DNA of 61,010 nt. Origin: a virus. Its lineage: Duplodnaviria > Caudoviricetes. The notes beneath the pieces are model-generated. The model was not told the origin of the DNA and did no database searches. It saw nothing but the letters and a program-made list of their open reading frames with translations. Location: positions 1 to 61,010 of IMG/VR virus record IMGVR_UViG_3300032111_000012; one strand, 5' to 3'. Positions 9,653 to 50,113 of this stretch are shown here, piece by piece (position 1 is the stretch's first letter; each line of letters begins with the position of its first letter). The translations under genes and the position numbers were made by a program.

Positions 9653-9667
9653 CTCTCTCGCCGTCCC

Positions 9668-10000: not shown

Positions 10001-10019
10001 TTCTCTGCATCCCCTCACA

Positions 10020-11311: not shown

Positions 11312-11345
11312 GACCCCTATTCCAACTTAACCCTCTCAGAGACAA

Positions 11346-11379
11346 CAAAAGATCCCCCAGCCTTCCGGCCAGGGGATCT
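11346..11379 (-). terminator. Intrinsic terminator
   Basis: Minus strand AGATCCCCTGGCC-GGAA-GGCTGGGGGATCT-TTTGTT. Confidence 0.75.
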
Positions 11380-11438
11380 CTCATCAATCAACAGCGGCGC
11401 AGAGACCCCCGGCTTTAGCCGTGGGGAGGAGCGCCGCT

Positions 11439-12452: not shown

Positions 12453-12459
12453 GGAGGTT

Positions 12460-13687: not shown

Positions 13688-13694
13688 CTCAACT

Positions 13695-23700: not shown

Positions 23701-24979
23701 GGATGTACCCAATAACCAACAGCAACGGCCCCGCCAAAAGCAAAAGGCCGGTGCCCAATGCGGCAGTAACGGCCACAATCTTCTGTGTCTCGGTGCTCAA
23801 GCTGTTATACCAAGACAGTAGCTTGGTCAACTGATCAGCGAACCACCGGATGGTCGGCTCCAGCTTTTCCCCAAAAGCAATCGCAACGCCTTCTGCGGCA
23901 GATGACAACTGCACCATCGTCCCCTTGAGGTTGTCCAACTGCTGTTTAGCGATCCTTTCAGCCGTACCTCCGGATAATTCCATCATCTTCGCCATCCGAC
24001 CGAAAGCCTCTGACCCACCCTCAACCAAGGCCATCATTCCGGTCACGGCCTCAATGCCGAAGATCTTGGAGAAAGACGCCGCCTTTTGAGCCTGCGTCCA
24101 CCCCTCAGTCCCTTCCTGAAGCCGACGAAGGATCTCCACCATCGGGAGCATCTTGCCCTGGGCGTCGATTGTGACCAGGCCCATCTTTTCCATTTCAGCG
24201 CGGGCCATCCTGGGCGGTTTCACAAGCCGCAGCAACGCCATTCGGAGCGTAGTACCCGCCTGGCTGCCTTTGATGCCCGCATTGCCCATCAAGCCAACAG
24301 CCGCCGCCGTCTCTTCCAAGGAGATCCCCAACGTCCGGGCCACAGGAGCAACATACTTCATCGACTCCCCGAGATCCATTAAAGCCACGTTGGTCGATAC
24401 CTGGGCCTGGGTAAGAACGTCAGCCACCCTCCCGGATTCCTTTGCCGCCAATCCAAACCCCATCAGCACGCTGGATACGATGTCGGCAGTGTTCGCCAAA
24501 TCCTCGGCTCCTGCGGCTGCGGCATCCAAAAGCCCCGGCATCGCAGCAATGATCTCGCTGGTCTTAAACCCCGACTGCGCCAAGAACTGCATAGCGTCAG
24601 AAGCTTGTTTGGCTGAATAAACGGTGGTAGCCCCCAGCCTCTTAGCCTCATCCCTCAACTTTTTCAATTCGACCTGGGTGGCCTGGGCCAGCGACCCGAC
24701 ACGGCTGACCGAATAGCCGAAATCCATCGCCACTTTGGTCATATACCCCAAACCAGCACCCGCTACAACACCAGCCGCAGTCATTTTCATCCCGACTGCC
24801 CGAAGAGACTCGGATACCTGCGTAAATGCCTTGGTAGCCGACTTCGATGCTTCTTCAGTGAGCTTCTGAACTGAGGCGGCTCCTCTTCTCAACTCAGCCT
24901 CTGCCGCCGCCACATCAGTTTTTAGCTTAGCAAGACTAATCCTGAACTCGGAATAAATGCTCCCCAACTTCTCAGACAT
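20783..24979 (-). CDS. Tail tape measure protein (TP901-type)
   Basis: LGATT.YSA.QA..AMQFLAQSG, GIKGSQAGTTLR core, TM segments, long coiled coils; start MSEKLG. Confidence 0.95.
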   Translation of the reverse strand: MSEKLGSIYSEFRISLAKLKTDVAAAEAELRRGAASVQKLTEEASKSATKAFTQVSESLRAVGMKMTAAGVVAGAGLGYMTKVAMDFGYSVSRVGSLAQATQVELKKLRDEAKRLGATTVYSAKQASDAMQFLAQSGFKTSEIIAAMPGLLDAAAAGAEDLANTADIVSSVLMGFGLAAKESGRVADVLTQAQVSTNVALMDLGESMKYVAPVARTLGISLEETAAAVGLMGNAGIKGSQAGTTLRMALLRLVKPPRMARAEMEKMGLVTIDAQGKMLPMVEILRRLQEGTEGWTQAQKAASFSKIFGIEAVTGMMALVEGGSEAFGRMAKMMELSGGTAERIAKQQLDNLKGTMVQLSSAAEGVAIAFGEKLEPTIRWFADQLTKLLSWYNSLSTETQKIVAVTAALGTGLLLLAGPLLLVIGYIPNIVAGMAQMRVALIAVRTAFQTTAASIGPVGWALLALSAALAVGIPAWQKYKQAQEEAADSTAARIAQLKAEKDAHEAQIDTYQTGIGALEQLGEEYAVLKDRMRDERFSAVESEKVKMRITEIEKILAGAIGEEAVARIRNAKDTRKAIGVEVDSLQIKLQAEQAALEASIKAEDEMTLHKIEQTRQRIKAIESESKAYSIQGKFFEKMTRGVMAFQRGLLKFGRAIGDESLVADMEEQLRRNEQLLEELYGKERQAEIAKFNAEIRKLQESLHFKEGASEQMTALAGTLSNLGDELDEFEDGDMSSLFGDTGKQAKAANDALVDLGHGLDVIRAKYELALAQLGENATAEQKAAVQAEYLTAAKAELEARIAKVTEAYQQMVAAKGVNAEESRALELQLLQEKKALVELGKEFEQAGQAMTDFGKGMDVLRAEFERDMAVLDVAGSEVERYQRKMAYLAAAQVEQASRVSKATRAYEAAVRVYGETSAEAQDYLVTLRQEEKALAELAAEVDEANRSFEEQKKAIKEIKAELDDYKDQLRDVEEQMAFDLAQARKDYLDQVRDINQELADEEKRLTDEYKRQVDDRAAAIYDWVGLFETVPEMIAMSSKQLIGQLQGQVNALQQWRDGLEELAGRGISEKLLRELEEMGPAAAGQILSLTQMTDEELAEFQALWEQKWQLANQTAADQMAYLWPEVEAQIQALKDQTAAKLQEYKAEWERNSAEIRERASAEIEQLTRRITELEEELKKKNQEVWGSVQMDATGAMTMIATTQKQTGAQMQTSNQATLTNIVGQTKTQLGILQAVTSTQWSVIRTTVQGHLNAVKQTFEDQQASAYSWGRNLMSSFIAGIESKYGALIDALQDIAAAIDAYLGFESPTEKGPGRFVEDWGPNMMASFIKGIESSLPDLERIARIVGEAMVPTGQFAVPALATGSQVSGTIVQVDVHDNIFQDGTEAGNKILRVLRRFGK

Positions 24980-25084
24980 CCGACCACCCCCAGACAACAA
25001 ACAGACAACAAAAAAGGGAACTTCCGCTCCCCTGGCAATCGTGGTATAATTTCCCCTCAAACAGCACGCTAAGGAGGTGACAAT

Positions 25085-26169: not shown

Positions 26170-26775
26170 TTATCCTGCCGATGCTGGCAGGGAATTTACG
26201 AACTCAGTGTTATACGGCCCATCCGATCCCCCAGGATGGTTCCGGGCCTTAATGGTGTATGACAGATCCACGAATTTCCCTTGCGCCACGCCAATGTCTC
26301 CTGGGATGGCACGGCAAAAAGGGAAGGTAAATCGAATATAACCCTCTTGCTGCCCTGTGCCATTAAAATGCCGGACAAACAACTGAAGCCGGAAAAACTT
26401 CTGCTGTGTTATCTGGGTACCCAAAGTTGGTGACCGCCATCCGATAGCATCTGCCCCAGACTCTGTACTCTGGGTGATCAAATTGCCTTTCAGCATGATG
26501 TCCTGGGCCGGGAGATCCAGGCGGGCATTTTTAAGCTCCAAATCCACTCCCAAAAGCGTGTCATCTTCCTCCTCGAAAGCAATCACGCCGCCCCCGTCAA
26601 CCTTTGTGACTTCTTCCTCTCCTTGCTCGATGAGCATCTTGATCCCAATCTCCTGCGGGACATCGATCCAATACTCCTCAGCCCCGATAATAGGGTTTCC
26701 CTGAGCATCCAAAGGCAGGATGACGGCCCCCCGGCACCCAAACAAGATCCCTTTCTTGGTCTGAATGATCGGCAT
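26170..26775 (-). CDS. Tail tube protein paralog 2
   Basis: Aligns along its length with 26812..27399. Confidence 0.7.
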   Translation of the reverse strand: MPIIQTKKGILFGCRGAVILPLDAQGNPIIGAEEYWIDVPQEIGIKMLIEQGEEEVTKVDGGGVIAFEEEDDTLLGVDLELKNARLDLPAQDIMLKGNLITQSTESGADAIGWRSPTLGTQITQQKFFRLQLFVRHFNGTGQQEGYIRFTFPFCRAIPGDIGVAQGKFVDLSYTIKARNHPGGSDGPYNTEFVNSLPASAG

Positions 26776-26811: not shown

Positions 26812-27399
26812 TTAGCCTGTCGCTTCGGGCGGCAGGGTAGACACGAACTGCGGCACCCAAGCCGGGCCAACAACACTTGGATTTTCCCGACCTTTAATGA
26901 CTACGCCCGGAGTGGCAAAGCTCTGGTCAGCATGCTCAAAATCACCCATCGACGCTTTACAGAACCCCAAAGTGTGCTTGATGTACCCGTCCAGCGTGCC
27001 GGTTGCGTCATAATTCTGGGCATACAATTCAACCTTGAACCTCGGACTGCTGGTTTGCTGCTCAGCGACCGTGGGCGGTGTCCATCCCACCGTATCACCG
27101 CCATCAGTAATCAGAGAGCCCCCCAGCATTAGCTGCTGCGCCTCGAAATTGAACCGGGCATCGGTAAAGTCCAGATCCATCCCGATAACAACATCCGGCT
27201 CTTCAATCTTGCAGAGAACCCTGTCGCCACCCCGATGAGTTGCACTCTCACCCTCTTCAACCGACGCCGAAAAACCCACCTTGGTCGGCGTGTTCACCCA
27301 GATTTTCGTCGGAACGGCAGGTGTAGTGCCATCGGCATTGAGTTGAGTGATCAGCATCCCTAGCACGCCATAGATATAACCCTTCTTGGCCTGGGCCAT
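26812..27399 (-). CDS. Major tail tube protein paralog 1
   Basis: Position, size and beta-rich composition. Confidence 0.75.
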   Translation of the reverse strand: MAQAKKGYIYGVLGMLITQLNADGTTPAVPTKIWVNTPTKVGFSASVEEGESATHRGGDRVLCKIEEPDVVIGMDLDFTDARFNFEAQQLMLGGSLITDGGDTVGWTPPTVAEQQTSSPRFKVELYAQNYDATGTLDGYIKHTLGFCKASMGDFEHADQSFATPGVVIKGRENPSVVGPAWVPQFVSTLPPEATG

Positions 27400-29582: not shown

Positions 29583-30629
29583 TTAACTGGTCGGCAGCGT
29601 GATCTCCTGGACATTCTGGGCAATCGCCGCATAAACGCCCCGGTAAGCCCGACCAACGAGTTGCGCCGTCACGAGACGGGACAGGTCGCCGTCGTTGGCA
29701 TCGACCAACAGGTCTTGTTTGATTAATTCTTTGAAACCCTTCTTGGGACGGATCAGGTAAGCCTTGTTATCGGCGACACCAGGGTAGCTGTAGGACTTCT
29801 TCCCGACCTGGATGTCCCAGCCGTCATAGTAGATGACAGTCTGGATCTCACCGATGGCCGCGTAATTGGTGCCAGCCACGGTCATCTCCTTAAGGGCCGG
29901 TTCGATGTCCACCTTGCGGGCGCTGCTCGCCAGGAGAACGCTGCCGGGCCGCTTAGCCTTGGCCGCGTCGGCCACAGCCTTCTGGAGCGTTTTCTTGACC
30001 TTCAAGGTCAAAGGATCGCCAGCATCGCCCTGCGCTGCGGTCTGGTTGCCAGCCGCATAAGTAGCAGTGATGATCGGCCCAAGGTGCAGATGGTTGAGCA
30101 AAGCATTGTAGGCTTCGCCGAATGCCTTGTTGAGGATGGTGATGTTGAAGCTCTCGTTGAACTTCTCCATTTCTTCGGTGTACTCAAACCCTGCGGCATA
30201 GGTAGCAATCCGGGCGGTCGGCCCCTGCTCGGCCCGCAGAGTGCCGAACTTGACTTCATTACCTTCCTTGATCTCAGCGAATACGACCACGCCGTACTGC
30301 ACCCACGGGGCATCAAACACCTTCGGGAAGTTGGGATCACTGAGTTGGTCATAGATTGAGCCGTACAGGAGAGGAACTTCCTCGCGGCCCATCTCGACGT
30401 CCAAGACGACTTTCTTGAGTAACTCCTTGCGCCCCTGGTCGCTTGTGAGCATTTCACCAAGGGGTGCGGTGATGTCCAGGACTTCCATCTCGCCGTTGAC
30501 AATAACGCGCTCGAAAGTGTGGAGTTTGCCCTGGTACAGGAACCCCACAGGGATCTTAACAGTCTTACCCATCAGGTCAGCCCTGCGCTGAGCCAACAGG
30601 GTTTCAACCGAAACAATCTGCTGCGCCAT
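29583..30629 (-). CDS. Major capsid protein
   Basis: 348 aa, EG.EVKFG / YAAGFEYT HK97-fold-like segments, strong SD GGAGGAGG. Confidence 0.85.
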   Translation of the reverse strand: MAQQIVSVETLLAQRRADLMGKTVKIPVGFLYQGKLHTFERVIVNGEMEVLDITAPLGEMLTSDQGRKELLKKVVLDVEMGREEVPLLYGSIYDQLSDPNFPKVFDAPWVQYGVVVFAEIKEGNEVKFGTLRAEQGPTARIATYAAGFEYTEEMEKFNESFNITILNKAFGEAYNALLNHLHLGPIITATYAAGNQTAAQGDAGDPLTLKVKKTLQKAVADAAKAKRPGSVLLASSARKVDIEPALKEMTVAGTNYAAIGEIQTVIYYDGWDIQVGKKSYSYPGVADNKAYLIRPKKGFKELIKQDLLVDANDGDLSRLVTAQLVGRAYRGVYAAIAQNVQEITLPTS

Positions 30630-30724: not shown

Positions 30725-31138
30725 TTAGACAGCAGGCACGTTGGCCACAGGCTGCGGCCCAAGGATGAACCAGATGACATTGTTGGCGTCCTTGGCGACG
30801 GTCACCCTACCGGCAGGACGGTTACCGGCGGCGGTGGTGGTGAAACGATTGTTGGCCGCATCCCAATAGATCAGATCGCCCTTGGCGAAAGCATCTCCAG
30901 TATTGATCTGATCGGTTTCGTACTCAGCCTGCTCAATATTGAGGGCCACTTCGCCGGTTTCACCCGCGCCGGTGGTCAGACTCGACATCGCTGCCCCCAA
31001 AAAACCGTCCAGCAAATAGATCTTCCCGGTTTCAATAGTCGTACCCTGCGGGACGGTCACCTGCACGGACTTACCATCACTGACCTTAGCCCGGTAAGCG
31101 TTGTAAACTGTAGTCGGGACATACGGAGTATTTCCCAT
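30725..31138 (-). CDS. DUF2190-like capsid decoration/cement protein
   Basis: FAKGDLIYWD...GNRPAG. Confidence 0.8.
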   Translation of the reverse strand: MGNTPYVPTTVYNAYRAKVSDGKSVQVTVPQGTTIETGKIYLLDGFLGAAMSSLTTGAGETGEVALNIEQAEYETDQINTGDAFAKGDLIYWDAANNRFTTTAAGNRPAGRVTVAKDANNVIWFILGPQPVANVPAV

Positions 31139-31185: not shown

Positions 31186-32763
31186 TTAGATGGCCTGCCG
31201 CCTGGTTCTGGTGAACTGCGGCTCGTTGTTGCCCTTGTTATTCTGCTTCGGGTCGGGAATCCTTCCGTCCTTAAACATCCGGGCAAGGACACCCTTGACT
31301 TCATCCGAAGCCAGGATCTCGCCAACAGCCTTCTCGACATCTGCCTTATTGGCCCCAACCTGGACATTCAGCATCCTGGAAACAAGAGGCCGGATCTCGC
31401 CCGCCACCTTCTCTTCCAAGACGCCCTTAACCAGAGCATCGTGGGCCGCTTTCTTATAATCACCCTCGGTGGTGATCAGAGCCTTGACCCTTTCCAATGC
31501 TTTGTCTGCTTTGTCCTGCTGGACACCCAGAACAGTGCAGATCTCACCGAATGCCTTGGCAGCCTTGCTGTCAGCCTCAATAGCCTGCGCGAAGCCAGGA
31601 TCAATTTCCCCAACTACCTGCGGGCCTTTCCAGCCCAGGACAGCAGCCAGTTGGGAGATCTTGATCTCGCCCTTCGCCATTGCTTCCTTAAGCTGAGTCA
31701 GAAGATCCATTCCACCTGTGCCCCCTTTGTAATTTGTATGGACAGCACCCGCAGGTGCAAATTCCCCGCCAATGGCGTCCATCTCCCCGATTGCTGCGAT
31801 CCAAGTCGGCATCCCTGGCCTGTCCAACGGCGTCCAATCGATAGACAAAGGACGGTAGCCAGTGACGTGGGTTTCCCCATTCACCGACTGCAACCTCGGG
31901 AACCCGAATATGGATACCTGCTTAATGCGGTTGGTTCTGATCCACCGCTTGAGATCCGGGGCCACCCGATCCACAACACCACGGAAGAAAGCCACGCCCT
32001 TACCGACGACCTCTCCCTTTTCGTTCTTGACCTCTCGGTCGGGATCAAACTTGGCACCCACCCAATGCGTGACCGGATCGCGGAACTCAGTATTGATGTC
32101 TTCCGCCTTTTGGTGCCCCCTAAACCCTGACAGCGTGTGAGTCATCACATGCTGAACGATGTCCTTTAAGGCTTCAGCCCGATAATACCACCCGCGCTTG
32201 GACATCCCGACCGGGACGCCCACGACCACCTCCAGCGGATCACTGTCGCCCGCCTTTAAGGCGGCCACATCAACACCAGGAGCCAAAGGCACATCATTGA
32301 CGCTCATCTCCCCTGTCAGATTGGCAAGCAAAAAGACGCCTTTATTGGCGTCCCGCATCTCACCGGCTGCATCCAACAAGCTCTCCGGTGGTTCCTTCTC
32401 CAACTCCCGGTAATGCCGGAGAAGATGCTTGGCTGCGCTCATCTTCTGCTCACCCGACAGGCTCGGCTCACTCCTGGCCCCTGCCAAGGCTGCGGCTGCC
32501 GCTTCCAAGCCGGATACATTGAGAACGACAGTTCCATCTTCCTGAATCTCATGGTGCGGCCCCCAACAATCCCCCTGCGTCAAATCGGCAGCACTCTCCA
32601 CCTTCAGGACAGCATAGACCTCGCGGGCCACCGATAAAGCATTTTCAGCTTTCTCCTCGATGGCGGCCTTGATTTTCCCCCAGATGACCCCCTTGTCCAC
32701 ATCGCCCCACGCTTTACTGCTCTTTCCCTTCCCGATCTTCAACGCTGGCACTCTGACCACCAC
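31186..32763 (-). CDS. Prohead protease/scaffold protein
   Basis: SKRGWYY, GFRGH, VSIFG, SIDWT; helical C-terminal scaffold. Confidence 0.7.
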   Translation of the reverse strand: MVVRVPALKIGKGKSSKAWGDVDKGVIWGKIKAAIEEKAENALSVAREVYAVLKVESAADLTQGDCWGPHHEIQEDGTVVLNVSGLEAAAAALAGARSEPSLSGEQKMSAAKHLLRHYRELEKEPPESLLDAAGEMRDANKGVFLLANLTGEMSVNDVPLAPGVDVAALKAGDSDPLEVVVGVPVGMSKRGWYYRAEALKDIVQHVMTHTLSGFRGHQKAEDINTEFRDPVTHWVGAKFDPDREVKNEKGEVVGKGVAFFRGVVDRVAPDLKRWIRTNRIKQVSIFGFPRLQSVNGETHVTGYRPLSIDWTPLDRPGMPTWIAAIGEMDAIGGEFAPAGAVHTNYKGGTGGMDLLTQLKEAMAKGEIKISQLAAVLGWKGPQVVGEIDPGFAQAIEADSKAAKAFGEICTVLGVQQDKADKALERVKALITTEGDYKKAAHDALVKGVLEEKVAGEIRPLVSRMLNVQVGANKADVEKAVGEILASDEVKGVLARMFKDGRIPDPKQNNKGNNEPQFTRTRRQAI

Positions 32764-33314: not shown

Positions 33315-33686
33315 CTAGTACGGGCCTCTCTGGAAAGATTGGGTCAAGCACTCAACCGCCGTGGCATTGTCAATCACCCAATCAGGCCTGGGCGTAATAA
33401 ACCAGCTAGACCACCTTTTAACCACCTGATCATCCGGCACCTTCTTAAAGATCAGCCTGCGCCACCGGTTCACCGGTTCCGACTTGCTCTCTTCCTGCCA
33501 CACAAATCCATCAGCAGTCTCGTAGAGCATCCGGCCCTCGACGATATGGCCCCGGCTGCCATCGTGCCAAGCTACCTGCACCCAGCGATCAACCAGATGA
33601 GCGGCCTCTGTAATCTTCACCCCGACTGCCGGGATTCCATACTCAATAGCCCCTTCCACCTCATACAGGACATTAGGGTCTACCAC
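33315..33686 (-). CDS. Hypothetical protein, candidate immunity/partner of MuF effector
   Basis: Start overlaps the MuF stop (GTGGTAG); Trp-rich 123 aa. Confidence 0.7.
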   Translation of the reverse strand: MVDPNVLYEVEGAIEYGIPAVGVKITEAAHLVDRWVQVAWHDGSRGHIVEGRMLYETADGFVWQEESKSEPVNRWRRLIFKKVPDDQVVKRWSSWFITPRPDWVIDNATAVECLTQSFQRGPY

Positions 33687-36600
33687 TTCCGTTTCACCAC
33701 CACAAACTTCTCAACCGGAATGCCATTAATCCGGTGCATTCCTGCGGCCTTGAAAGCGTTGATCAGATTGTCCTTCATAAACGATGAATCACAGGTGATC
33801 CGCTTCACCGCCCGTAGAGGCACCCCGCCCCTGAACATTATCTCATTGCTTTCCCTGGGGTTGTCAAGCTCACTGGCTACGTAATCCTCAACGGAAGGCC
33901 GATCATCCCAAAACGGCCCCCTGGTACGCCCAAACCTGTCGCCATTGTATGCAAACCAATCCGTTCTGTCCAGTTGTTCCAGGTCTACCATCAGCCGGTA
34001 GCCCGAACCGGCATAGGAATCACTATAGGCCAAACCTTTGCCCTTCCTGGTTGTGAGCCGGAAGAAGATGTAGTCAGCCCCGCCATCAAACATGTCTTGA
34101 TGAGTGCTATGTCCCTTATTAAAATCCCACCCATGCATAATACGCTCACTCAGCGAAAGGCCGTTCCCCGTCTGGAAGATTCGGACTACACCCTCGGCAT
34201 CACCGCCAACACCCGAGAAGAGCTCTATTGCTCCTTTCTCCTGCCATTCCTTATGCCGTCCAGGGATCACCCAAGTACGATGGCCGGGGATGATCTCCAT
34301 CTCCACCATCGACTCAATAACCTTCATATCCTGGACGCTCAGGTTGCTGGACAGCTTAGCCCAGGAAAGCTCTTTATGGGTTGTGGCAATTCGCTCAGCC
34401 TTCCGTGGATCTGCCTGCCACAGATAACGCATTGCCTTATGGATCATCTCGGCCTCGGTCGGTACCGGAGCAAGCAAGATTTTGTCGAACTCCAACTCCC
34501 GGAGAGCTTCCTGGAACCACTCGGCGGCATCCCTGATATCATCGGTCTTGATGACAAGCTCCATCTGGCCCCTGAGCACCTGAAACTCAGTGCCCGTGGA
34601 CGCCCTCAACTCCCACCGGCCTTTGGGGTCTGCAATTACCACATTGCGATGGTGGGCCGCATAAGAATAACTGCCAGGGCCGCCCCCTGTCTGTAATTCA
34701 ACAATGGTTCGGTATTGCCCAGGGCCGACTGGCTGCGCCCTGACATTACCGAACCAGAACCGCCATTGGCTGTAGACCCTGCCCCTGGCCTCAAGACCCG
34801 CCTTCATCTCCTGGATGTACTTATCCCTTATCTTGAAGGTAACCCTGAATCCTGGCTTACCTCCAAAGGTACCATAATGGATACGCCATTCCTGACCCTC
34901 AAGGATCTGCTCGTCGCCCCTGAACGCCTTACCCATATGGTTGCGCTGAAACTTTATCTCCTTTAACTCATCCTCGATCCGATCTAAATCCAGATGGCCC
35001 CCGATATCTGCCGGAGACGGGATCGGCTCAGGAGCATCTACGCCCTTGGCTTTGGTTGTCTTCTTGGTCGCCCTGGACTCTTTGGCCTTAGCATATGCCC
35101 TGGCCTTGACCTTCTCCAGAATCTCCTTCCGGGCCGCATCATTGCAGATGGCCTCAACTAGTTCGTCCTTGGACATCTCCTTGAGCATCCACTTCGGGAT
35201 CTGCCCCTGATAGACGGCCAACTCCTTCAACTGCTTGACGGTCATATCCTCAATGGCCCATCGCTGCCCGAACTCCAACTCTGTCTCATCGGCGAACTTA
35301 AACAAGAGAGAGGCATTGTGCCCCTCTCTCTCCCTAATCAACTGCCGATAGAACTTGCGGTATTCTTCTCGCAAATTCCCTAAGCGGTTCTGGATAGCCC
35401 CTATTAACTCATTAGCGTCAACCCCAGGCATTTGCTTGGCTAAGGCTTTGGCATAAGGCATAAAGAGAGCTTCAACTTCTTCGGCCCCCAACTGCTCCAT
35501 CCTCTTCAACGGCTTGAGGATGGCCTGGAGATCTAGATCGATCTCTCCCTTAGCATAGGCACGGTAAATGGTGTTGTAAATCGGCTCCCATTCCCCATAA
35601 GTGGCATTGGGGTGATAGGTGTAACTCATCCTATGACTGCCCGGATCTTTGATGTAACGGAACGCCTGTTCCTTATCGACACCGATGATCCGGCCATCCG
35701 ACATTTTCAGGAAGTTCCCGGCGTGACTGTCGAAATTCCCGACCGACCAATCCAAGACATGTTCCCTGAGAATCTGATCCAAGTCGTCCTTAGTTAACTT
35801 ACTGATGATCTCATCCGGGTACCTGCCCAAGCTCTTAAGATCATACTGGACACCCTTGACCAAAGGTTGCAGGGTGCCCACCCTGCCCTCAAGCTCCACC
35901 ACCTTGACCGGGATGAACTGATCCTCATCAAAGATGATGTTCGCCAGCCTGCTGGCCGCCTCTTGGATCTCCGCCCGAAACGGTTCGGCCTTGGCCGGGT
36001 ACCCCTTCGAGACAGCAGGCTTAAAGATGTACTGCTGACCATCTGCCCCCTGGTAGATCGTTTTCTGCCCCGCCCCGCCCAGGTATGAGCCATCCCCGAT
36101 CAACTTCAATTCCTCGGCAGGGGGCATAATCGGTGCCCTGACCTGCTGCCCTGGTACAGGCGGGATAACCGACGCCGCATTAGCCACCACAGCCACCGGC
36201 TTTAACTCCAAAGTGTCCGGGAGCTTGCTGACCCATTTCTGCGTCTCCGGTAACTTCGAAAAATACCCCTGGTACCACTCTTCCAACTTGCTATTGGACG
36301 ATGGATCTTCCAACCACTTCTCCACACTGGCCCGAAACTCAGCAGGCCGATAAATCGGCACCAAATGGCAAATACAATTGGGGTGTGCCGGAAAAGCCGG
36401 GATCTCATACCATTGATAGACCCCTTCGCCATCCCCCCCCATCGCATAATCATTGCAGATGTCCGGTCTGGGGTGTGTGGTACCCAGCGTCCACTTTAAC
36501 CCCTCACAAGCCGGACTGAACTTGGCCCCCGAGACTGTACCCTCTCCAAACGCCGCCGCCATCTCCGTCCGTGCCAACCTTAAAGCCTCATAGCAGGTGC

Positions 36601-37771
36601 CACCCTTAAGCCTGCCCGCCATCCTCATCATCATATTGGGGTATTGGCGGGCGAAGGTCTTAGATCCACCCAACACATAGGTTTCCAAAGCATTAGCGGT
36701 CTTGACTGCATCCATCCCCAAAGCAATCCCGACGCCCACGATCTCCTTCATTGCTGCTCTGGTTTCTGCTGCAATCTGCCAGATCCGGTCAGAAACGTAT
36801 AAGCCATCCTTCCCGACCCTGGCCCAATACGCCTCCACCGCCTGCCGGTTAATAACTCCGAAAGCGGCCTGCACCTTGACAGGCGGCAGCAAATCCTTTG
36901 CCTCGTCCGGGAGTGTATGCCAGATGTCCTCAAAAATCTCCTGGTGAACCTTAAGACCCAACCCAACCGAATCCTTAGCATAAACCCCGAAGGTCTGCTC
37001 CAGATCCACCCCCAGGTACACCATCTCGTCCAAGAGCATCTGGAACCGGTTGGTAAATACCTCATACTGCTTTGGATGTACCTTCGTCGTTTGCATCATC
37101 TCTAAAAGAATGCTCTTGGCCTGCTTGTAAGCACTGATGTATATGTCCCTTATGGACTGATCGGCCCGAAGCCTAAGAGCCAAAAACTCATTGCGGGCCG
37201 CCAAAATCCTCTGCCTGAACTCTCCCGCCGCCTGGACGATCTTCTTTGTCTGTTCCTCAGCCGCAGTCAACTGCGCCAACTCATTGGCGATCTTAGTAGC
37301 CTCGGCCTGAGCCTGGTGCGCCACGACCGCCTTAGCCTTATCCCCTGCCTCTGCCAAAGCGTGTTGGAACTGTTGAGACAACTGTAGCATCTTCTGATTG
37401 TACGTCTCCAGCATCTCGTCCTTGAGCTTGAAATACTGCTTGCTGGTGATCTGCTTACTATTCAGAGCCGCGACAATGGCCTGCTCCTTCTCGAGCTTCC
37501 AATCCCGGAGGAGCTTGACCTTTTCCTCAAACTCGGTCTGCGTCATCTGCGGCAAGAGTCCTGCTGCCTTAGCCTTGGCATCCAACGCAGCTAAGGCAGC
37601 AGCTTTCTCTTCTTTGGCCTTGGCCCACTGGTTGTAATACCTTTCGATGTCAGCCCATTCCGTGGCGTTATCGCAAAGGTCAGCGACCCTCTTTAGCTTG
37701 GCATCCCATTGGGTTTCAAGCTCGGCTTTCTCCTTCTGGTACTGTTCCCACGTCCAAGCCAAGCCCCTCAC
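33680..37771 (-). CDS. MuF-family minor head protein fused to HipA/PI3K-like kinase, HeH-like motif and ART-like C-terminal domain
   Basis: After portal; RLARTE, DIC, PAHPNCIC (MuF); YIFKP, GNFDSHAGN, VDKE (kinase); GGADYIFFR...NEIMFRGG tip. Confidence 0.85.
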   Translation of the reverse strand: MRGLAWTWEQYQKEKAELETQWDAKLKRVADLCDNATEWADIERYYNQWAKAKEEKAAALAALDAKAKAAGLLPQMTQTEFEEKVKLLRDWKLEKEQAIVAALNSKQITSKQYFKLKDEMLETYNQKMLQLSQQFQHALAEAGDKAKAVVAHQAQAEATKIANELAQLTAAEEQTKKIVQAAGEFRQRILAARNEFLALRLRADQSIRDIYISAYKQAKSILLEMMQTTKVHPKQYEVFTNRFQMLLDEMVYLGVDLEQTFGVYAKDSVGLGLKVHQEIFEDIWHTLPDEAKDLLPPVKVQAAFGVINRQAVEAYWARVGKDGLYVSDRIWQIAAETRAAMKEIVGVGIALGMDAVKTANALETYVLGGSKTFARQYPNMMMRMAGRLKGGTCYEALRLARTEMAAAFGEGTVSGAKFSPACEGLKWTLGTTHPRPDICNDYAMGGDGEGVYQWYEIPAFPAHPNCICHLVPIYRPAEFRASVEKWLEDPSSNSKLEEWYQGYFSKLPETQKWVSKLPDTLELKPVAVVANAASVIPPVPGQQVRAPIMPPAEELKLIGDGSYLGGAGQKTIYQGADGQQYIFKPAVSKGYPAKAEPFRAEIQEAASRLANIIFDEDQFIPVKVVELEGRVGTLQPLVKGVQYDLKSLGRYPDEIISKLTKDDLDQILREHVLDWSVGNFDSHAGNFLKMSDGRIIGVDKEQAFRYIKDPGSHRMSYTYHPNATYGEWEPIYNTIYRAYAKGEIDLDLQAILKPLKRMEQLGAEEVEALFMPYAKALAKQMPGVDANELIGAIQNRLGNLREEYRKFYRQLIREREGHNASLLFKFADETELEFGQRWAIEDMTVKQLKELAVYQGQIPKWMLKEMSKDELVEAICNDAARKEILEKVKARAYAKAKESRATKKTTKAKGVDAPEPIPSPADIGGHLDLDRIEDELKEIKFQRNHMGKAFRGDEQILEGQEWRIHYGTFGGKPGFRVTFKIRDKYIQEMKAGLEARGRVYSQWRFWFGNVRAQPVGPGQYRTIVELQTGGGPGSYSYAAHHRNVVIADPKGRWELRASTGTEFQVLRGQMELVIKTDDIRDAAEWFQEALRELEFDKILLAPVPTEAEMIHKAMRYLWQADPRKAERIATTHKELSWAKLSSNLSVQDMKVIESMVEMEIIPGHRTWVIPGRHKEWQEKGAIELFSGVGGDAEGVVRIFQTGNGLSLSERIMHGWDFNKGHSTHQDMFDGGADYIFFRLTTRKGKGLAYSDSYAGSGYRLMVDLEQLDRTDWFAYNGDRFGRTRGPFWDDRPSVEDYVASELDNPRESNEIMFRGGVPLRAVKRITCDSSFMKDNLINAFKAAGMHRINGIPVEKFVVVKRKW

Positions 37772-39510: not shown

Positions 39511-40872
39511 CTAATAAAACCTGACGCCCGACAGCACCCTGGCCGTCTGCTTAGTCACTCTCTCCACCGCAAGCAGGTTAACCACCAGATGCCGTAAAGC
39601 ATCCATCGAATGGTCAAACTTCTTGATCGGCTTCTCTGCCGGGTTGGTCTTGTCCCGGCCCTCCGGGTACCGGTACGAATTGAACTCCATAATGGTATTC
39701 CGGCACCTGCGCCTATCAACAAGAAGGCCAGGGCTGCCATCATCCCTGACCTTCAACACTCTACGCACCTGCTCCAAGCCATCTGTTACTTCGTGCGGCT
39801 TGGCCTTGGTCGGGATACCGACCAGGGCCAGATCCTTCCTCTCTCCCGGCCCCTCTGGATCAGCAAAAGCATCGGTGATCCTGCCGTATCCCCTCTCCTT
39901 GTGGTAAGCGGCCACAGCCTCAGCGTTCTCCTTCGATGTTCGGCCCGTCTCATAATACTCATCAATGATATGCACCCGATCCATCGGATCAATCTGCACC
40001 CAGAGACACACATAAGGATTCGTGAAGCCGAAGTCGAAGCAACAATACAAAGGCCAGTTGGGATTATACTCCAAGAAGTCAGTGTGCGACTCTTCCAAAA
40101 AGTCCCCATACACACGTCCGCTGAAGGTCTGGAACCTGGCCTCATACTCCTGGAGGAAGTATTCCCTGGAATACCTTGACCGGGCCTTCTCAATCTCTTT
40201 CTCAGGCGTGATCCCTGCATACTTGGTCGTGTAATGGATCACCGCAAACTCTGGATCACCCTGCAGAGCTGCTTGATAGACATCATCATGAAGCCAGTTC
40301 ATTCCCTTAGGTGTCCCGGTCATCCACCCGATACCACCCAAACGTCTGGCACGTGCCTCAAGGTTAATGTAAGACTCCCTCTTCAGCAATGCAGGCTCAT
40401 CCAGCCAAAACCAATGGATATTACCCGCCCGAAGGCTGTCGGGATCACTGGCGGACTTGAACTCGATCAGGCTGCCCCCTGGGAGATGTAGCTCCTTTTG
40501 GGTTTCCTTCCACGATAGCTTAAGCTGAGGCGGCAGCCACTTGAAGAACTCCCACATTGCCGTCTTAAGCAATGGGTAATCCCTTGCCACGATCCAGCCG
40601 TGGTTCGGCCACGGGATCCCAAACCTGGCACACCACGTTGGATCGGTTGCCATCCATATCGCTTCATTGGCTCCTGCCCCTGTTTTGCCAGAGCCGATTC
40701 CAGCCAAAGCCAGCCGGAACTTGGCACGCGATAAATGGAAATGATACTGGCCTGGGTTAGGGTTATATTCAATGCGATGGACGCTCCGGCCCGGCTTCCC
40801 CTGCCCCGCCCAAAATTGTAACGTTCCCGGTTTGACGTTGACCTTCCTGAACCTGACTAGCGGTGCAACCAT
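39511..40872 (-). CDS. terL: Terminase large subunit
   Basis: GIGSGKT, WLDE, TGTPKG, DFGFTNP, DHSMDALR. Confidence 0.95.
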   Translation of the reverse strand: MVAPLVRFRKVNVKPGTLQFWAGQGKPGRSVHRIEYNPNPGQYHFHLSRAKFRLALAGIGSGKTGAGANEAIWMATDPTWCARFGIPWPNHGWIVARDYPLLKTAMWEFFKWLPPQLKLSWKETQKELHLPGGSLIEFKSASDPDSLRAGNIHWFWLDEPALLKRESYINLEARARRLGGIGWMTGTPKGMNWLHDDVYQAALQGDPEFAVIHYTTKYAGITPEKEIEKARSRYSREYFLQEYEARFQTFSGRVYGDFLEESHTDFLEYNPNWPLYCCFDFGFTNPYVCLWVQIDPMDRVHIIDEYYETGRTSKENAEAVAAYHKERGYGRITDAFADPEGPGERKDLALVGIPTKAKPHEVTDGLEQVRRVLKVRDDGSPGLLVDRRRCRNTIMEFNSYRYPEGRDKTNPAEKPIKKFDHSMDALRHLVVNLLAVERVTKQTARVLSGVRFY

Positions 40873-41335
40873 CCTGCGGATGCCACCTCTCAATGACGAT
40901 ACGCTCAGACGGGTTGCCCTGGTCAGCCACCGGCAGGAATCCCAGAGACTGAATCACTGCCACCCAAGCACTCCTGGCCTGTACCCTGGCCTTCAATGCC
41001 CCCAGCTTGATGTTGGGGTGATTGTTGCTATTGATAAGGGCCGACAACTCCCGGATATCTTCGTCGTACCCCGCTGCGATCTCAGCAAGCAGAGTCTCCG
41101 GGCCTGCGCTCATCATCTCCTTCCCTTGCCTCTTGGCAACGGACTTGAGAATGTCGCGGATCTGCCTCTCCGAAAGACCATACGCTACAGCCAAATCCGG
41201 AATGGCATACCCTTTTGCCCGGAGGCGCTGGATCTCTCGGTCGCGTGCATCACGTTCATCCCGAGACATCCCAGGCACCGGCCCCCTTCTCCCCTGCCCC
41301 GCCTGCTGCTTACTGCTTTTGCCCACTCGAATCAC
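40769..41335 (-). CDS. terS: Terminase small subunit (HTH)
   Basis: N-terminal HTH (LAVAYGLSERQIRD); directly upstream of TerL. Confidence 0.7.
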   Translation of the reverse strand: MIRVGKSSKQQAGQGRRGPVPGMSRDERDARDREIQRLRAKGYAIPDLAVAYGLSERQIRDILKSVAKRQGKEMMSAGPETLLAEIAAGYDEDIRELSALINSNNHPNIKLGALKARVQARSAWVAVIQSLGFLPVADQGNPSERIVIERWHPQDGCTASQVQEGQRQTGNVTILGGAGEAGPERPSH

Positions 41336-45441: not shown

Positions 45442-46440
45442 TCAGAATTCCCCGTACCCCTCCAGGTGGCGCACATGCCATTCCCAGGCCGTGCGGATGA
45501 TGGTCTCCAGGTCCCCGTAGCGCGGCGCCCAGCCCAGTTGCCGCTGGATCTTATGCGAACCGGCGACCAGCGCGGTCGGATCGCCCTCTCTCCGAAAACC
45601 TGTTTCTACCGGTATGTCGCAGCCGGTCACTCTCCGGGCCGTATCGATTACCTCCCGTACCGAGTGCCCCCGCTCGTTGCCCAGGTTATATGCCCCCGAA
45701 GGATGACCGCCATCCAGGGCACGCAGGGCCAGAACATGCGCCTCGGCCAGATCCGAGACGTGAACGTAATCCCGGATACAGGTTCCGTCCGGCGTGGGGT
45801 AGTCCGTACCAAAAATGGTGATCCCCGGTTGCAATCCCAAGGCTGCCTGCAACACCAGGGGGATGAGATGGGTTTCCGGCCTGTGGTCCTCGCCGAGATC
45901 CCCTGCCGGATCGGCACCGGCGGCATTGAAATACCGGAGCGCGATGTACTTCAGGCCGTAAGCGGCGCCATACCAGCGCAGCGCCTCTTCAAAGGCCAGC
46001 TTGGTCGCCCCGTATGGGTTGGTGGGGGTAAGGGGATGGTCTTCCTCGATAGGTACCCGCACCGGCTCGCCGTAAACTGCGGCGGTCGAAGAAAAGATAA
46101 AATACGGGACACCCGCTTCCTGCACCGCTTCCAGCAGCGCCAGCCCCTTTACCACGTTGTTCCGGTAATAAAGCGCCGGGTCAGCCACCGACTCTCCCAC
46201 CAGGCTCAACGCCGCAAAGTGGAGTACTGCCCGGACGCCGCAGGAGCGCAGTAGCCCGCCTACCAGCTCCCGATCCGCAATGTCTCCCCAGACAAACTCT
46301 GCCCCCTCAAGCACCTGCGCTACTCCCCGGTGCCCCCGGGAGAGGTTGTCCAGCACCGTCACCTTATAACCCGCCTGAAGGAGTTCTTTCACAGTGTGAC
46401 TGCCGATATAGCCCGCCCCGCCGGTAACAAAAACGTGCAT
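45442..46440 (-). CDS. galE: UDP-glucose 4-epimerase
   Basis: GGAGYIG, HFAA, SSTAAVYG, YGATK, LRYFN, DGTCIRDYVHV all intact. Confidence 0.97.
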   Translation of the reverse strand: MHVFVTGGAGYIGSHTVKELLQAGYKVTVLDNLSRGHRGVAQVLEGAEFVWGDIADRELVGGLLRSCGVRAVLHFAALSLVGESVADPALYYRNNVVKGLALLEAVQEAGVPYFIFSSTAAVYGEPVRVPIEEDHPLTPTNPYGATKLAFEEALRWYGAAYGLKYIALRYFNAAGADPAGDLGEDHRPETHLIPLVLQAALGLQPGITIFGTDYPTPDGTCIRDYVHVSDLAEAHVLALRALDGGHPSGAYNLGNERGHSVREVIDTARRVTGCDIPVETGFRREGDPTALVAGSHKIQRQLGWAPRYGDLETIIRTAWEWHVRHLEGYGEF

Positions 46441-48234: not shown

Positions 48235-49023
48235 TCAAGATCCCGAACATCTTGCGCTCTCCTTCTCCCGAATCGTCCTCCCGCCATAGTAGGAAACACC
48301 GTATTCCAGATCCCCCTCAAACCGGCCCACATAAACCGGCTTGCCCGGATAAACATATACAGCCTGGACTCCCGAGAAGAACGCCCCGCAATCGATCCCG
48401 ACCTTGTTCCCTTCCTGCCACACCCTGGCCCGACCATGGATCAATGGTGTAGGCGTATGCCCAAATACGACTGTCTTATCCGTGATTACCTCTGAATTGA
48501 TGAATGCCTCCCGAATGTGCAAGAGTATTCCGGGCCTCTGCTCGGCCATTACCACCGGCACTCCCGGCTCCACCCCTGCGTGACAATAGATGTGCTTCTC
48601 CGTTTCCCGGTAAAGAGGCAGGCTCTCAATCCACCGTAGCACCTCTTTGGGGATATACCTGTTGACGGACTCCGGTTCCCAGACCTTATTCCAGGGGCAA
48701 CCGTAGCTCATCAATGTCGCGCCTCCGCCGTTGTAGATCCACAACTCAAACCGATCTAAATCCCCCAAAGCCGCCATCAAAAGGTCGTCATCATGATTGC
48801 CCCGCAATGCCTGAACTCCACTGATCTTGGATAGCTCCATCACCAGTTCGTAGACCCCCTTGGTGTTCGGGCCGCGATCCCCATAATCACCAAGGAAGGT
48901 CAACCAATCAACCCCCGGTCTAAACCGGGCCTTCCTCAACCCCGCGACCAGGTTGTCCAAATCCCCGTGAATGTCTGTCATTGCCAGTTCCCTGCGATCC
49001 ATCTCTCCCGATACTCCTCTCAT
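48235..49023 (-). CDS. Calcineurin-like Ser/Thr protein phosphatase (lambda NinI/PrpA-like)
   Basis: DIHG, GDYGDRG, LRGNHD, NGG, HAG, GHTP, IDCG. Confidence 0.92.
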   Translation of the reverse strand: MRGVSGEMDRRELAMTDIHGDLDNLVAGLRKARFRPGVDWLTFLGDYGDRGPNTKGVYELVMELSKISGVQALRGNHDDDLLMAALGDLDRFELWIYNGGGATLMSYGCPWNKVWEPESVNRYIPKEVLRWIESLPLYRETEKHIYCHAGVEPGVPVVMAEQRPGILLHIREAFINSEVITDKTVVFGHTPTPLIHGRARVWQEGNKVGIDCGAFFSGVQAVYVYPGKPVYVGRFEGDLEYGVSYYGGRTIREKESARCSGS

Positions 49024-49502
49024 TTAACCGATGGCGGTATCTTTGAGTTACCTAAATCCACCGCCCCGTCCGCAAAAGCCATCACAGCATCTCCCCGCCT
49101 CAAAGCAACAATGGCTTCACCGATGGCCGTGCAAGCCTGTTCTTCGGCATCCTCAAACAAAGACCCAATGGTACGCCGCGCCTCGTCCGACATCCCATTT
49201 GTGACCTGCTTGACGATCTCCCACATCGGAGCGATATGCAGGTGCAACAACTCGTGAACGATTATGTACTCCATATCCATCTCGCCCCGGCGACTCTCGC
49301 CCACCTCATTGGGATCAACCGGCCTCAGCCTTACTTTGCGGCTAGGCGTCCGGTACCAAATGTCCCCATTGGATTCCCGATTATCCTGATTCCGTGGGCG
49401 AACCATATCAATAACAATCTGCCATCCCCCCAGCCTGAGAAGGGACTGGTAGAACATTGTCACCCCAATAGCCTGCTCCCTGGTAAGGTTTCTCGTATCC
49501 AT
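49020..49502 (-). CDS. Zincin-like metallopeptidase
   Basis: IIVHELLH with downstream EE. Confidence 0.65.
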   Translation of the reverse strand: MDTRNLTREQAIGVTMFYQSLLRLGGWQIVIDMVRPRNQDNRESNGDIWYRTPSRKVRLRPVDPNEVGESRRGEMDMEYIIVHELLHLHIAPMWEIVKQVTNGMSDEARRTIGSLFEDAEEQACTAIGEAIVALRRGDAVMAFADGAVDLGNSKIPPSVK

Positions 49503-50113
49503 TACGCCGTCTTGCCCCCTTGCTGGATGTACTGGATCGTCCCGACTACGGCAGCCACCCTGTCCTCAATCGGGCCAGACACCCTAACGTGCGGCACATA
49601 GAGCAGGTTATCCTCAATCAATTCGGCAATCCGACCCCGACACACCGGGCAACAATCACGGAACCCATCTTCCTCGGCTTCAAATTCAATGGGCAGATAG
49701 ACCACCAGATCATAATGGGTCTTGGCCTTACCGATAGCCAGATCCCGATAGCGGGCGTGATCCTTAGATCCTAATGGAGCTACCCGGTAAAGCTCGAAAT
49801 AAGCCAGATAATCCAGGGTTGCCCGATCCGAAACAAACCCGGCTTGCTGCAACATGTCCTCCGCAGCAATCTGCATCGCCAAGGCTTTCCACTGAAACCT
49901 CATTGCGCATTCCCGATCCCTTACCACCTGAGCCACATTCTCAATTCCCAAAACCTTAGCCGCTTGTCGAGCCTGCTCCACAATCAGGGCCAAGCCAAGC
50001 TCTTCAGCCAACCGATTAGCCAAGGTTGTCTTGCCTGTGCAATGGGTTCCCGCGATAGCTATCCTGGGCGGCCTCACACAACCTGGCGCAACAGCTGCAT
50101 GTTGAGTCTCCAA
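49502..50113 (-). CDS. P-loop nucleotide kinase-like protein (AAA_28/NadR-like)
   Basis: AGTHCTGKTT, VSDRATLDY, EEDGFR. Confidence 0.8.
   Translation of the reverse strand: METQHAAVAPGCVRPPRIAIAGTHCTGKTTLANRLAEELGLALIVEQARQAAKVLGIENVAQVVRDRECAMRFQWKALAMQIAAEDMLQQAGFVSDRATLDYLAYFELYRVAPLGSKDHARYRDLAIGKAKTHYDLVVYLPIEFEAEEDGFRDCCPVCRGRIAELIEDNLLYVPHVRVSGPIEDRVAAVVGTIQYIQQGGKTA

Follow-up and report, generated by a model that had tools for sequence, protein, structure and literature searches.

Why should a phage head protein end in two enzyme-like domains, with a small gene overlapping its stop codon? The question is raised by IMG/VR record IMGVR_UViG_3300032111_000012 (Duplodnaviria; Caudoviricetes), whose 61,010 nucleotides (nt; hereinafter designated the window) are nearly all one temperate siphovirus-type prophage with its genes on the minus strand. 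The gene concerned, P0001, encodes a protein of 1363 amino acids (aa) in an open reading frame (ORF) that starts 8 nt past the portal stop and lies ahead of the scaffold-like, decoration and capsid genes. A prediction made earlier from the letters alone (hereinafter designated the original prediction) had placed this gene after portal and had read in it, in this order, a MuF core, a kinase, an HeH-like motif and an ADP-ribosyltransferase (ART)-like C-terminal domain (hereinafter designated the tip); both statements are correct, and all of the motifs quoted are found within a few bases of where they were placed (Table 1). The combination of a kinase and a DarT-like ART on a head protein, with a small partner always behind, suggests that P0001 probably encodes injected enzyme cargo with a matching inhibitor. 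We consider it somewhat likely that the protein is a virion-delivered two-enzyme effector and that P0002, the 123-aa gene behind it, encodes its cognate inhibitor.

The assignment to head proteins comes from residues 172-505, which match phrog_1657 ('head morphogenesis', 8.2e-78) and nine more PHROG families, including phrog_115 ('minor head protein', 1e-12) and phrog_4728 (3.6e-13); eight of the nine describe head or pilot proteins. Pfam Phage_Mu_F (PF04233) gives no match at E<=1 on the 1363-aa protein. The PAHPNCIC motif, which the original prediction took as the MuF core, aligns with the PPAHPRCRC of Phage_Mu_F-positive homologues, and the Phage_Mu_F cut-off is reached by 15 of 16 sampled viral homologues, the 16th matching Phage_min_cap2. 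The protein thus combines the MuF homology and the position directly after portal that characterize MuF/SPP1 gp7-type proteins. The claim of an N-terminal coiled coil fares less well: the extension is rich in A, K, L, E and Q, but its relatives reduce to one, since among 157 proteins phmmer matches it only in P0001 and the 97%-identical P0003, and we presume it to be a lineage-specific helical part. Public data hold this one 97%-identical 1363-aa protein and, in addition, proteins of ~1140 aa with the same domain order.

The kinase domain was modeled by folding residues 548-908 with AlphaFold2 (AF2) from an alignment of 32 homologues, which gives a protein-kinase-like fold (predicted local distance difference test (pLDDT) 93.5, predicted template modeling score (pTM) 0.83). 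The best solved matches in Foldseek are PI4KII-alpha (E 2e-5) and Helicobacter CtkA, and structure comparison with VIA-align over 48,161 chains returns the same two, PI4KII-alpha with Z 15.4 (232 residues aligned, root-mean-square deviation (rmsd) 3.9) and CtkA with Z 14.1, followed at lower scores by MavQ (12.0), Fam20C (12.0), actin-fragmin kinase (11.8), CotH (10.6) and HipA (10.0-10.7). The fold carries an ATP-binding lysine, a catalytic D-x-H-x2-N loop and a metal-binding aspartate, and this set is conserved in 126 non-identical domains (K584 in 122, D681 in 122, H683 in 115, N686 in 113, D699 in 121 and K700 in 125), in line with the predicted motif set LGGAG, YIFKP, DSHAGN and VDKE. The domain shares the Lys/Asp/Asn/Asp set with PI4KII-alpha, CtkA, HipA and the actin-fragmin kinase of Physarum, and its D-x-H-x2-N loop resembles that of PI3/4K and HipA; unlike these kinases, to which it is 12-17% identical, it reaches no Pfam family. 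The only Pfam match is HipA_C, at 14.5 bits against a cut-off of 30.5 bits, PI3_PI4_kinase and HipA_2 were not found, and Atlas neighbours bearing HipA_2, PI3_PI4_kinase or LepB_N, with scores of 0.92-0.93, serve as leads only. A HipA toxin was considered and rejected on this sub-cut-off match, on the fold score of ~10, which lies below those of PI4KII and CtkA, and on the lack of a HipB-like neighbour. The model therefore describes an atypical kinase that looks active and falls into the PI3/4K-CtkA-HipA neighbourhood, outside every curated family, with a predicted fold that does not tell whether the substrate would be protein, lipid or other.

Of the HeH-like motif that follows the kinase, a part stands. 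AF2 predicts helices of helix-turn-helix-like kind at residues 845-855, 860-863 and 868-876 (block-mean pLDDT 84-95 over residues ~838-877), that is, two short helices and an extended linker with the 860-863 element between them. Rho_N (PF07498) is found in the aligned segment of the homologues, in 10 of 16 viral ones at E<=1e-3 (8 of 16 at or above cut-off) and, by precomputed annotation, in four of the six first matches and in six of 37 representative matches; the 1363-aa protein itself gives no Rho_N match at E<=1. The middle domain, which occurs in a subset of the tip-bearing relatives, resembles CYTH/TTM-like, TBP-like, START and type III chaperone folds (VIA-align Z 4.6-6.2), matches too weak and too mixed for the domain to be named.

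The tip was modeled within residues 940-1363, folded by AF2 with 31 homologues (pLDDT 84.1, pTM 0.84). Foldseek ranks DarT entries first (7yk3, 7omy, 7omv, 8baq and 7omu; probability 1.00, E 1e-3 to 1e-2). VIA-align gives Z 11.5 for DarT1 8baq (164 residues aligned, rmsd 3.4), 11.4 for 7omu, 10.9 for 7omv and 10.4 for 7yk3, and these four DarT entries are the best four of all chains compared (156-164 residues aligned, rmsd 3.1-3.7). The next matches, Tpt1 (7.1), OspC3 (6.9), CopC (6.5), a Salmonella ART effector (6.4) and CteC (5.8), are all ART folds. The predicted DarT/OspC-like tip is therefore borne out, with DarT nearest and OspC3 and CopC lower. A Tpt1/KptA identity (Z 7.1 and 5.3 against 10.4-11.5 for DarT) and membership in the OspC/CopC family (Z 6.5-6.9, rmsd 5.3-6.0) were both rejected. 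Sequence searches of the PDB returned no relevant match, with chance-level hits to ABL1, kinesin and similar proteins only, and a fold search of BFVD found only distant uncharacterised viral proteins, among them some of giant viruses, iridoviruses and baculoviruses (E 2.5e-5 and worse).

A profile comparison leads to the same relationship. Aligned by hhalign with 11 PF14487-bearing DarT genes, the tip family matches at probability 85% (E 6e-6, 171 aligned columns), and the late glutamate foreseen by the original prediction, E1310 of the N-E-I-M-F motif, falls on the invariant glutamate of DarT Q-A-E, the catalytic Glu, while D1278 falls on the aspartate of DarT D-x-N-A and Ser1186 on the beta-1 His (H-x-T of the NAD+ site). 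E1310, R1269, D1278, G1281 and G1230 are invariant in all 225 tip domains, and S1222 (222), D1226 (224), R1238 (212), D1271 (223) and N1309 (204) are nearly so. The invariance of E1310 together with a dozen near-invariant polar residues argues for a maintained active site, and the model thus points to an ART fold that is related to DarT, lies outside Pfam DarT and has kept its site around the Glu. The tip differs from DarT in its own motifs (G-x-S, GG-x-D-x2-F-x-R, R-T-D-W and N-E) and its variable beta-1 His position, and also in its setting, fused to a virion-type protein instead of standing alone and lacking a macrodomain or NADAR partner: the prophage ORFs scanned include neither a DarG macrodomain nor a NADAR antitoxin, nor any other member of the macro, NADAR, ARH or Nudix families.

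The third component is the gene behind the tip. The GTG start of P0002 overlaps the TAG stop of P0001 by 7 nt, as had been noticed from the letters, and the suspected link of this ORF with the tip gene is matched by a strict adjacency. Scanning viral contigs with the middle+tip alignment gave 106 confirmed relatives, from which 80 loci were kept, and an iterated local search over all ORFs of these loci (a word-based search found P0002 only) finds a member of the partner family directly behind the tip gene in 79 of them; the remaining locus ends 1 nt past the gene, which leaves 79 of 79 evaluable loci. The adjacency spans three portal types and includes the three complete kinase-less forms, and at least 29 of the viral partner ORFs overlap the upstream ORF by 4 nt. 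The downstream ORFs are conserved, at 111-128 aa, and in an alignment of 25 partner sequences, 10-25% identical to the window protein, what is conserved is Y8, an R-G-H motif with H47, G51 and a C-terminal motif resembling E-W-Y-R.

Taken as a virion-delivered effector, P0001 would encode a head-internal, portal-associated MuF protein whose C-terminal two thirds are enzyme cargo, made up of the atypical kinase, an HeH motif of DNA/RNA-binding type, the middle domain and a DarT-related ART of a separate family. The MuF part would bring few copies into the capsid, and the protein would exit with the DNA at infection. In the new cell, the kinase would phosphorylate and the tip would ADP-ribosylate host targets, which may be nucleic acid, by analogy with DarT, or else proteins of defence or host takeover, by analogy with the T7 kinase and T4 Alt, and the HeH motif may tether the enzymes to nucleic acid. 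Modification of these targets would help the incoming genome establish. The 123-aa protein, possibly by binding the tip, would act as cognate neutraliser and keep the tip harmless in the producing cell, and orphan copies of the partner in host defence islands would blunt an incoming effector.

Several observations weigh against this reading. The sequencing runs that contain the stretch are environmental metagenome DNA only and no RNA run containing it is listed, the host genome (2.49 Mb in 89 contigs) having been assembled from environmental metagenome data. For the tip, Foldseek gives no match at E<=0.001, and the Pfam DarT profile PF14487 reaches 14.1 bits (E 0.04) against a cut-off of 22.5 bits, over residues 1245-1348 and profile positions 101-193; a six-frame genome search with the DarT model reaches 16.7 bits. 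The Ser1186 position varies among the 225 tips (H in 60, A in 42, S in 40 and T in 27), and since the beta-1 His position is not conserved, NAD+ binding by the tip is putative. The variable His position and the sub-threshold Pfam match would suit a tip that is no longer an active transferase and functions by binding NAD+/ADP-ribose or nucleic acid, leaving the kinase as the sole enzyme. We regard such an inactive tip as very unlikely, because the glutamate at the catalytic position and the polar residues around it have been kept as a functional site would be, the tip occurs alone in many short proteins, and DarT1 itself departs from the H-Y-E motif and is described as relying on E152, R35, R52 and D54 (PMC11543638).

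For the kinase, the question is how tightly it is bound to the tip. HMMER with residues 900-1363 over 1.84 billion representatives finds 862 tip proteins at E<=1e-3, a number that falls to 448 at E<=1e-10 and to 32 at E<=1e-30; they mostly have residues ~1149-1363 in common, and none of 37 tip-bearing representatives has a Pfam family over the tip. Among 149 of these proteins listed, of 125-4180 aa, no more than 40 aa separate the tip from the C-terminus in 115, and a kinase is detectable by phmmer in 48, leaving 101 without one. The kinase is found in none of the 23 proteins shorter than 400 aa, in one of 43 with 400-800 aa, in 19 of 50 with 800-1300 aa and in 28 of 33 with at least 1300 aa, and four tip proteins have two kinase copies. 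The kinase link is thus not universal, so the two enzymes need not act together, and the large number of tip proteins without a kinase speaks for a tip able to function by itself as well. Nor did a cultured phage with the cassette turn up: tblastn with middle+tip against 50,697 phage records gives no match at E<=1e-3, and a single-protein scan of genome contigs returned just a weak 83-residue match in a Paenibacillus record. In a sample of 401 genomes of the host phylum, four, including the present host, have the tip, in ORFs of ~1130-1364 aa.

On viral contigs the two domains are nearly inseparable. Kinase and tip share one ORF, typically encoding a protein of ~1120-1150 aa, in 73 of the 80 viral loci, and four more are truncated by contig ends, giving 73 of 76 evaluable loci; the complete kinase-less ORFs are those of L051, L060 and L065, of which L060 alone has upstream DNA enough (4.4 kb) to exclude a separate kinase gene. 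The upstream gene is a portal in all 15 loci sampled (Portal_Mu in 12, Phage_portal in two, SPP1_portal in one), and the presence of three portal families indicates that the cassette is not confined to one head-module lineage.

Two further forms were seen in these searches. In a second architecture, the middle domain and tip stand near the N-terminus (~80-496) of proteins of ~1140-1157 aa and are followed by ~650 residues (P0082, P0089, P0103, P0125, P0134, P0140 and P0156); Pfam finds no family in P0082 and P0089. One viral contig of 75,937 bases carries the kinase-tip gene twice (L043, 580-13410; L068, 57092-69856); either a concatemer-type assembly or a genuine duplication could explain this.

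Outside phages, the cassette occurs in split form. A tblastn search against plasmids gives 28 records, 26 of Streptomyces, one of Kitasatospora and one of Mycolicibacterium, all annotated as hypothetical, and four plasmids were inspected (three Streptomyces linear plasmids, L106, L107 and L109, and the Mycolicibacterium plasmid L108). On these, the kinase domain ends a protein of 797-902 aa (domain E 1e-28 to 1e-37) and a protein of 556-744 aa, encoded one or two genes further on, ends in the tip (domain E 7e-26 to 1e-33). Start and stop codons touch or overlap on three of these plasmids; pSCL3 of S. clavuligerus has 323 nt between the two genes. The order is a 131-133-aa gene, the kinase gene, the tip gene and a conserved 146-156-aa gene, ~35-45 kb from the plasmid end and flanked by replication-relaxation (relaxase-like), ParB and DUF4417 genes; Pfam returned nothing useful on the cassette proteins. 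All three Streptomyces plasmids carry an ADP-ribosylglycohydrolase gene 5-6 kb further on, one of them with a NUDIX gene nearby, and as these plasmids are mutually related, the glycohydrolase context amounts to about one observation. The plasmid cassette has the same kinase and tip families as the phage gene, but as two genes, with no MuF part and with a small partner unrelated to P0002.

Fusion in phages and fission in plasmids argue that kinase and tip serve one process, and one form of this would be a two-step modification in which both act in series on one substrate, either with phosphorylation priming or locking an ADP-ribose mark or with the tip ADP-ribosylating a kinase-added phosphate, as Tpt1-type ARTs do on nucleic-acid ends. 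Such chemistry would explain the co-retention of the two domains, in one ORF in nearly all evaluable viral loci, together in most of the listed proteins of at least 1300 aa, some of which have two kinase copies, and as adjacent, translationally coupled genes in all four inspected actinobacterial plasmids, fused or split by lineage; the HeH motif between kinase and tip and the rank of Tpt1 as next-best fold after DarT are also consistent with it. We nevertheless think serial action distinctly improbable. Two thirds of the listed tip proteins have no kinase by phmmer (101 of 149, as above), L060 encodes MuF and tip with no kinase within its 4.4 kb of upstream DNA, and the kinase fold is of PI4KII/CtkA/actin-fragmin-kinase type, the known members of which use lipid or protein substrates, and not of polynucleotide-kinase type. 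Effector domains of polyvalent proteins are, moreover, described as often co-travelling without chemical coupling (PMC5512222).

For the partner, the points against the effector reading concern its role as inhibitor. Pfam finds no family at E<=0.1 in the 25 partner members save two stray single matches, the family's comparison with the PDB returns two de novo helices only and no relative, and the small plasmid gene is unrelated to the phage partner family (hhalign probability 0.1%). An Atlas search with the 123-aa protein stays at scores of 0.80 or below and gives no lead, and the 103 partner clusters in a collection of 5.8 billion proteins, of 63-138 aa, are all unnamed and without Pfam family. 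The partner could instead be a chaperone, packaging adaptor or cofactor for the cargo, with orphan copies serving other proteins. Strict adjacency and overlap would suit a dedicated chaperone equally, and the conserved Y8, R-G-H47 and G51 could form a functional site. What speaks for an inhibitor is where else the family occurs: it is present in 18 of the 401 host-phylum genomes, namely in all four tip-bearing ones, where it abuts the tip, and in 14 more as an orphan, which is hard to explain for a chaperone, and an unrelated small protein at the same plasmid position is typical of immunity or antitoxin genes. We therefore hold a chaperone role to be unlikely, if worth keeping in mind.

The orphans themselves give a mixed picture. 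No tip or kinase lies near them in 12 stretches of 4-10 kb, and three orphan matches carry in-frame stops. Seven orphan loci were annotated. Two of them, from different families of the phylum (L111, G036:C53:71000-80625; L117, G296:C1:1300000-1310000), end one conserved gene row of PglZ, BrxA, a 356-aa protein, an OLD/GajA-like ATPase (PADLOC Old 1.6e-62) and one or two small ORFs. A third orphan stands beside a PADLOC defence-candidate match (PDC-M41B 3e-41) and a fourth beside a phrog_2045 protein, identified by PHROG only, of the same PHROG family as the PDC-M41B-matching protein; one of these two loci also has an antitoxin-like gene. One orphan is near an integrase, and two loci are uninformative. 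A defence-island context in four of seven annotated loci is thin, and the variety of contexts, including positions beside an integrase or a replication initiator, would also fit a chaperone. In a small sample, coupling to the tip in phages and free copies in defence or mobile contexts resembles the pattern known for immunity genes. The 356-aa protein, which belongs to no family, also occurs in L116.

An immunity-like partner invites comparison with the MuF toxins defined by Jamet 2017 (PMC5576092), in which delivery with the DNA is hypothesised; that paper reports ARTs in 14% of 191 MuF toxins and small downstream ORFs in 89.4%, and its prototype with activity is the EFV toxin of Enterococcus faecalis V583, a MuF-ART. 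The word 'kinase' appears nowhere in its main text; its supplementary tables may list further domains. As a classical MuF polymorphic toxin, P0001 would arrest bacteria that lack the immunity protein, by the tip with or without the kinase, in lysogen competition or exclusion; the 123-aa protein would be an immunity protein made in the lysogen, and the phage's own infection would not be helped. This alternative agrees with the MuF N-terminus, the variable C-terminal enzyme, the small downstream ORF and the temperate phage (PMC5576092), as well as for orphan partner genes without toxin, like orphan immunity genes, and DarT enzymes are known as bacteriostatic toxins (PMC11543638). A promoter-like site at 33972-33944 (-), matching at 10 of 12 positions, lies inside the tip-coding region upstream of the 123-aa gene; it is a lead only, as the five promoter-like and four terminator-like sites of the region are not above shuffles (promoter-like, 5 against 3.3 +/- 1.6). 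The C-terminal module, moreover, is not polymorphic, the same kinase-tip cassette recurring across three portal types; the overlap of the small gene with the stop of a late head gene points to co-expression of the two; and poisoning a just-entered cell would harm the phage unless tuned. On balance a classical toxin appears rather unlikely to us. P0001 resembles MuF toxins in following portal, ending in an enzyme-like domain, having an ORF of <150 aa behind it, belonging to a temperate phage and being a candidate for delivery with the DNA, and it departs from them in carrying two enzyme-like domains and two more modules instead of one toxin domain, in a DarT-like ART without a Pfam model and in a cargo conserved across phage lineages.

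The effector reading may be extended to the plasmids. Kinase and DarT-like ART would then be an 'establishment' cassette of invading DNA, MuF-borne in phages and encoded by two coupled genes on plasmids, which bacteria would counter with orphan inhibitors in defence islands beside BREX and OLD genes, the enzymes perhaps acting in series on nucleic acid; we regard this broader proposal as possible, with the balance clearly against it.

The original prediction also named the phosphatase at 48235..49023 as a potential off-switch, and this part did not survive. A NinI-like/calcineurin-like phosphoesterase is indeed encoded in the same prophage, but it lies ~10 kb away in the early/replication region, and NinI-type phosphatases are common in lambdoid early regions. 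A phrog_246 homologue is absent from all ten related kinase-tip viral records searched, five of them at least 90% complete, whereas the same search is positive in 13 of 14 control genomes. The phosphatase was dropped as a dedicated partner on this lack of co-occurrence, and we consider it extremely improbable as the dedicated off-switch of the kinase.

The features of the window are collected in Table 1. The phage is judged temperate from its integrase and its repressor-like genes.

Table 1 Positions in the window of P0001, its domains and motifs, its partner and other prophage genes
Feature	Position	Strand	Residues	Basis or remark
Integrase	1-1023			PHROG match
Holin + amidase	13277-14363			PHROG match
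Tape measure	20783-25060			PHROG match
Capsid protein	29583-30629			PHROG match
Decoration protein	30725-31138			PHROG match
phrog_3219 protein	31186-32763			PHROG match
Partner gene P0002, 123 aa	33315..33686	(-)		ORF list; GTG start
P0001, 1363 aa: MuF - kinase - HeH-like - middle domain - DarT-like tip	33680..37771	(-)
DarT-like ADP-ribosyltransferase fold (tip)	33683..34306	(-)	1156-1363	predicted; signature G1220-x-S1222, D1226, G1230-G, F1236-x-R1238, R1269-T-D-W, D1278-x2-G1281, N1309-E1310
NEIMFRGG	33824-33847
GGADYIFFR	34058-34084
Alpha+beta middle domain	34487..34939	(-)	945-1095	AF2 model; low-confidence insert ~999-1038
HeH/Rho_N-like motif	35144..35245	(-)	843-876	then long helix 878-903 and K/A-rich linker
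SKDELVEAI	35147-35173
MTVKQLKEL	35219-35245
Atypical protein-kinase-like domain	35267..36130	(-)	548-835	AF2 fold + conservation; Gly loop 564-568, K584, D681-x-H683-x2-N686, D699-K-E
VDKE	35669-35680
DSHAGN	35714-35731
YIFKP	36017-36031
LGGAG	36068-36082
MuF-type head morphogenesis domain	36257..37258	(-)	172-505	ends in PAHPNCIC
PAHPNCIC	36368-36391
N-terminal extension	37259..37771	(-)	1-171	A/K/L/E/Q-rich; presumed helical or coiled coil
Portal gene, directly upstream of P0001	37779..39323	(-)		phrog_64, 4.7e-42
Large terminase	39511-40893			PHROG match
ParB, RusA, DnaB genes	beyond head module			PHROG matches
NinI-like/calcineurin-like phosphoesterase	48235..49023			phrog_246 1.5e-48; Metallophos 2.5e-13
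Repressor-like genes	near 59.8-61 kb			PHROG match

Several neighbouring features were noted in passing. A terminator-like hairpin at 33138-33110 (-), with an 11-bp stem of which seven pairs are G-C, stands between P0002 and the head gene that follows and is a lead only. Two neighbouring genes at 26170-26775 and 26812-27399 (-) are tail-tube-like paralogues, both of phrog_6686 (5e-20 and 5e-21). The block from integrase to lysis genes (2203-12488) has the look of prophage cargo or morons; it contains two HNH-like genes, an ATPase (phrog_1297), a transposase (6302-7693) and a HicB-like antitoxin (10416-10958). In the early region, 45442-46440 (-) encodes an NAD-dependent sugar epimerase/dehydratase (Pfam Epimerase 2e-62), which may be a moron or a DNA/sugar-modification gene. 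One gene (49020-49502) separates the phosphatase from a P-loop protein at 49502-50113 (-) (Pfam AAA_28 3.6e-19), whose PHROG match to nicotinamide-nucleotide adenylyltransferase is weak (9e-7). It may be a kinase of NAD+-salvage type, and the same phage also has an NAD+-using fold.

Enzymes that arrive with or soon after phage DNA have precedents. Head-packaged ARTs and polyvalent proteins have been described (PMC5512222, PMC9503650), and T4 Alt is assigned to the R-S-E clade of ARTs (PMC5512222). In the account of Iyer 2017 (PMC5512222), the kinase of polyvalent proteins is of Ser/Thr/Tyr type without a C-lobe, in elements of Verrucomicrobia and Bacteroidetes, and their ART is Tox-ART-HYD2 (H-Y-D). 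P0001 is like polyvalent proteins in being a large multi-effector protein of an invasive element, in drawing on a repertoire that includes MuF, ART and kinase, and in occurring on plasmids and phages, and unlike them in its PI4KII/CtkA-like kinase and DarT-like ART. The likeness to DarT, here DarT1 (8baq) and DarT2 (7omv and 7yk3), is that of the nearest solved fold with a Glu at the QAE position. T4 Alt and T7 Gp0.7 are models for how P0001 might work, as both modify the host at the start of infection and Alt travels in the capsid; in contrast to them, both activities here would reside on one MuF polypeptide, and the T7 kinase is expressed early and not packaged. The T7 kinase is also said, in a 2026 paper, to disarm defences.

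No paper in the literature searched describes a MuF protein with such a kinase or with a DarT-like tip. Compared with that literature, what is new are two unnamed enzyme families, their recurrent linkage on phages and plasmids, and a partner family with orphans in defence islands; the finding as a whole varies the theme of MuF toxins and polyvalent effectors. Two large unnamed families, the tip with its 862 clusters and the PI4KII/CtkA-like kinase, sit on a type of protein that travels in phage heads. If P0001 is a virion-delivered effector, injection of a kinase and a DarT-like transferase along with the DNA would be common to many temperate phages of uncultured bacteria, virion-borne host-modifying enzymes would extend beyond T4 Alt-type ARTs, and the DarT fold, so far mainly known as a bacterial anti-phage toxin, would have been put to counter-use. 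Inhibitors of injected phage effectors may then circulate as orphan genes in defence islands, and should the cassette serve the establishment of invading DNA in general, it would represent an undescribed layer of effectors and anti-effectors in the arms race between phages and their hosts. The fused form in phages and the split form on Streptomyces plasmids make a clean pair for asking whether kinase and transferase cooperate chemically.

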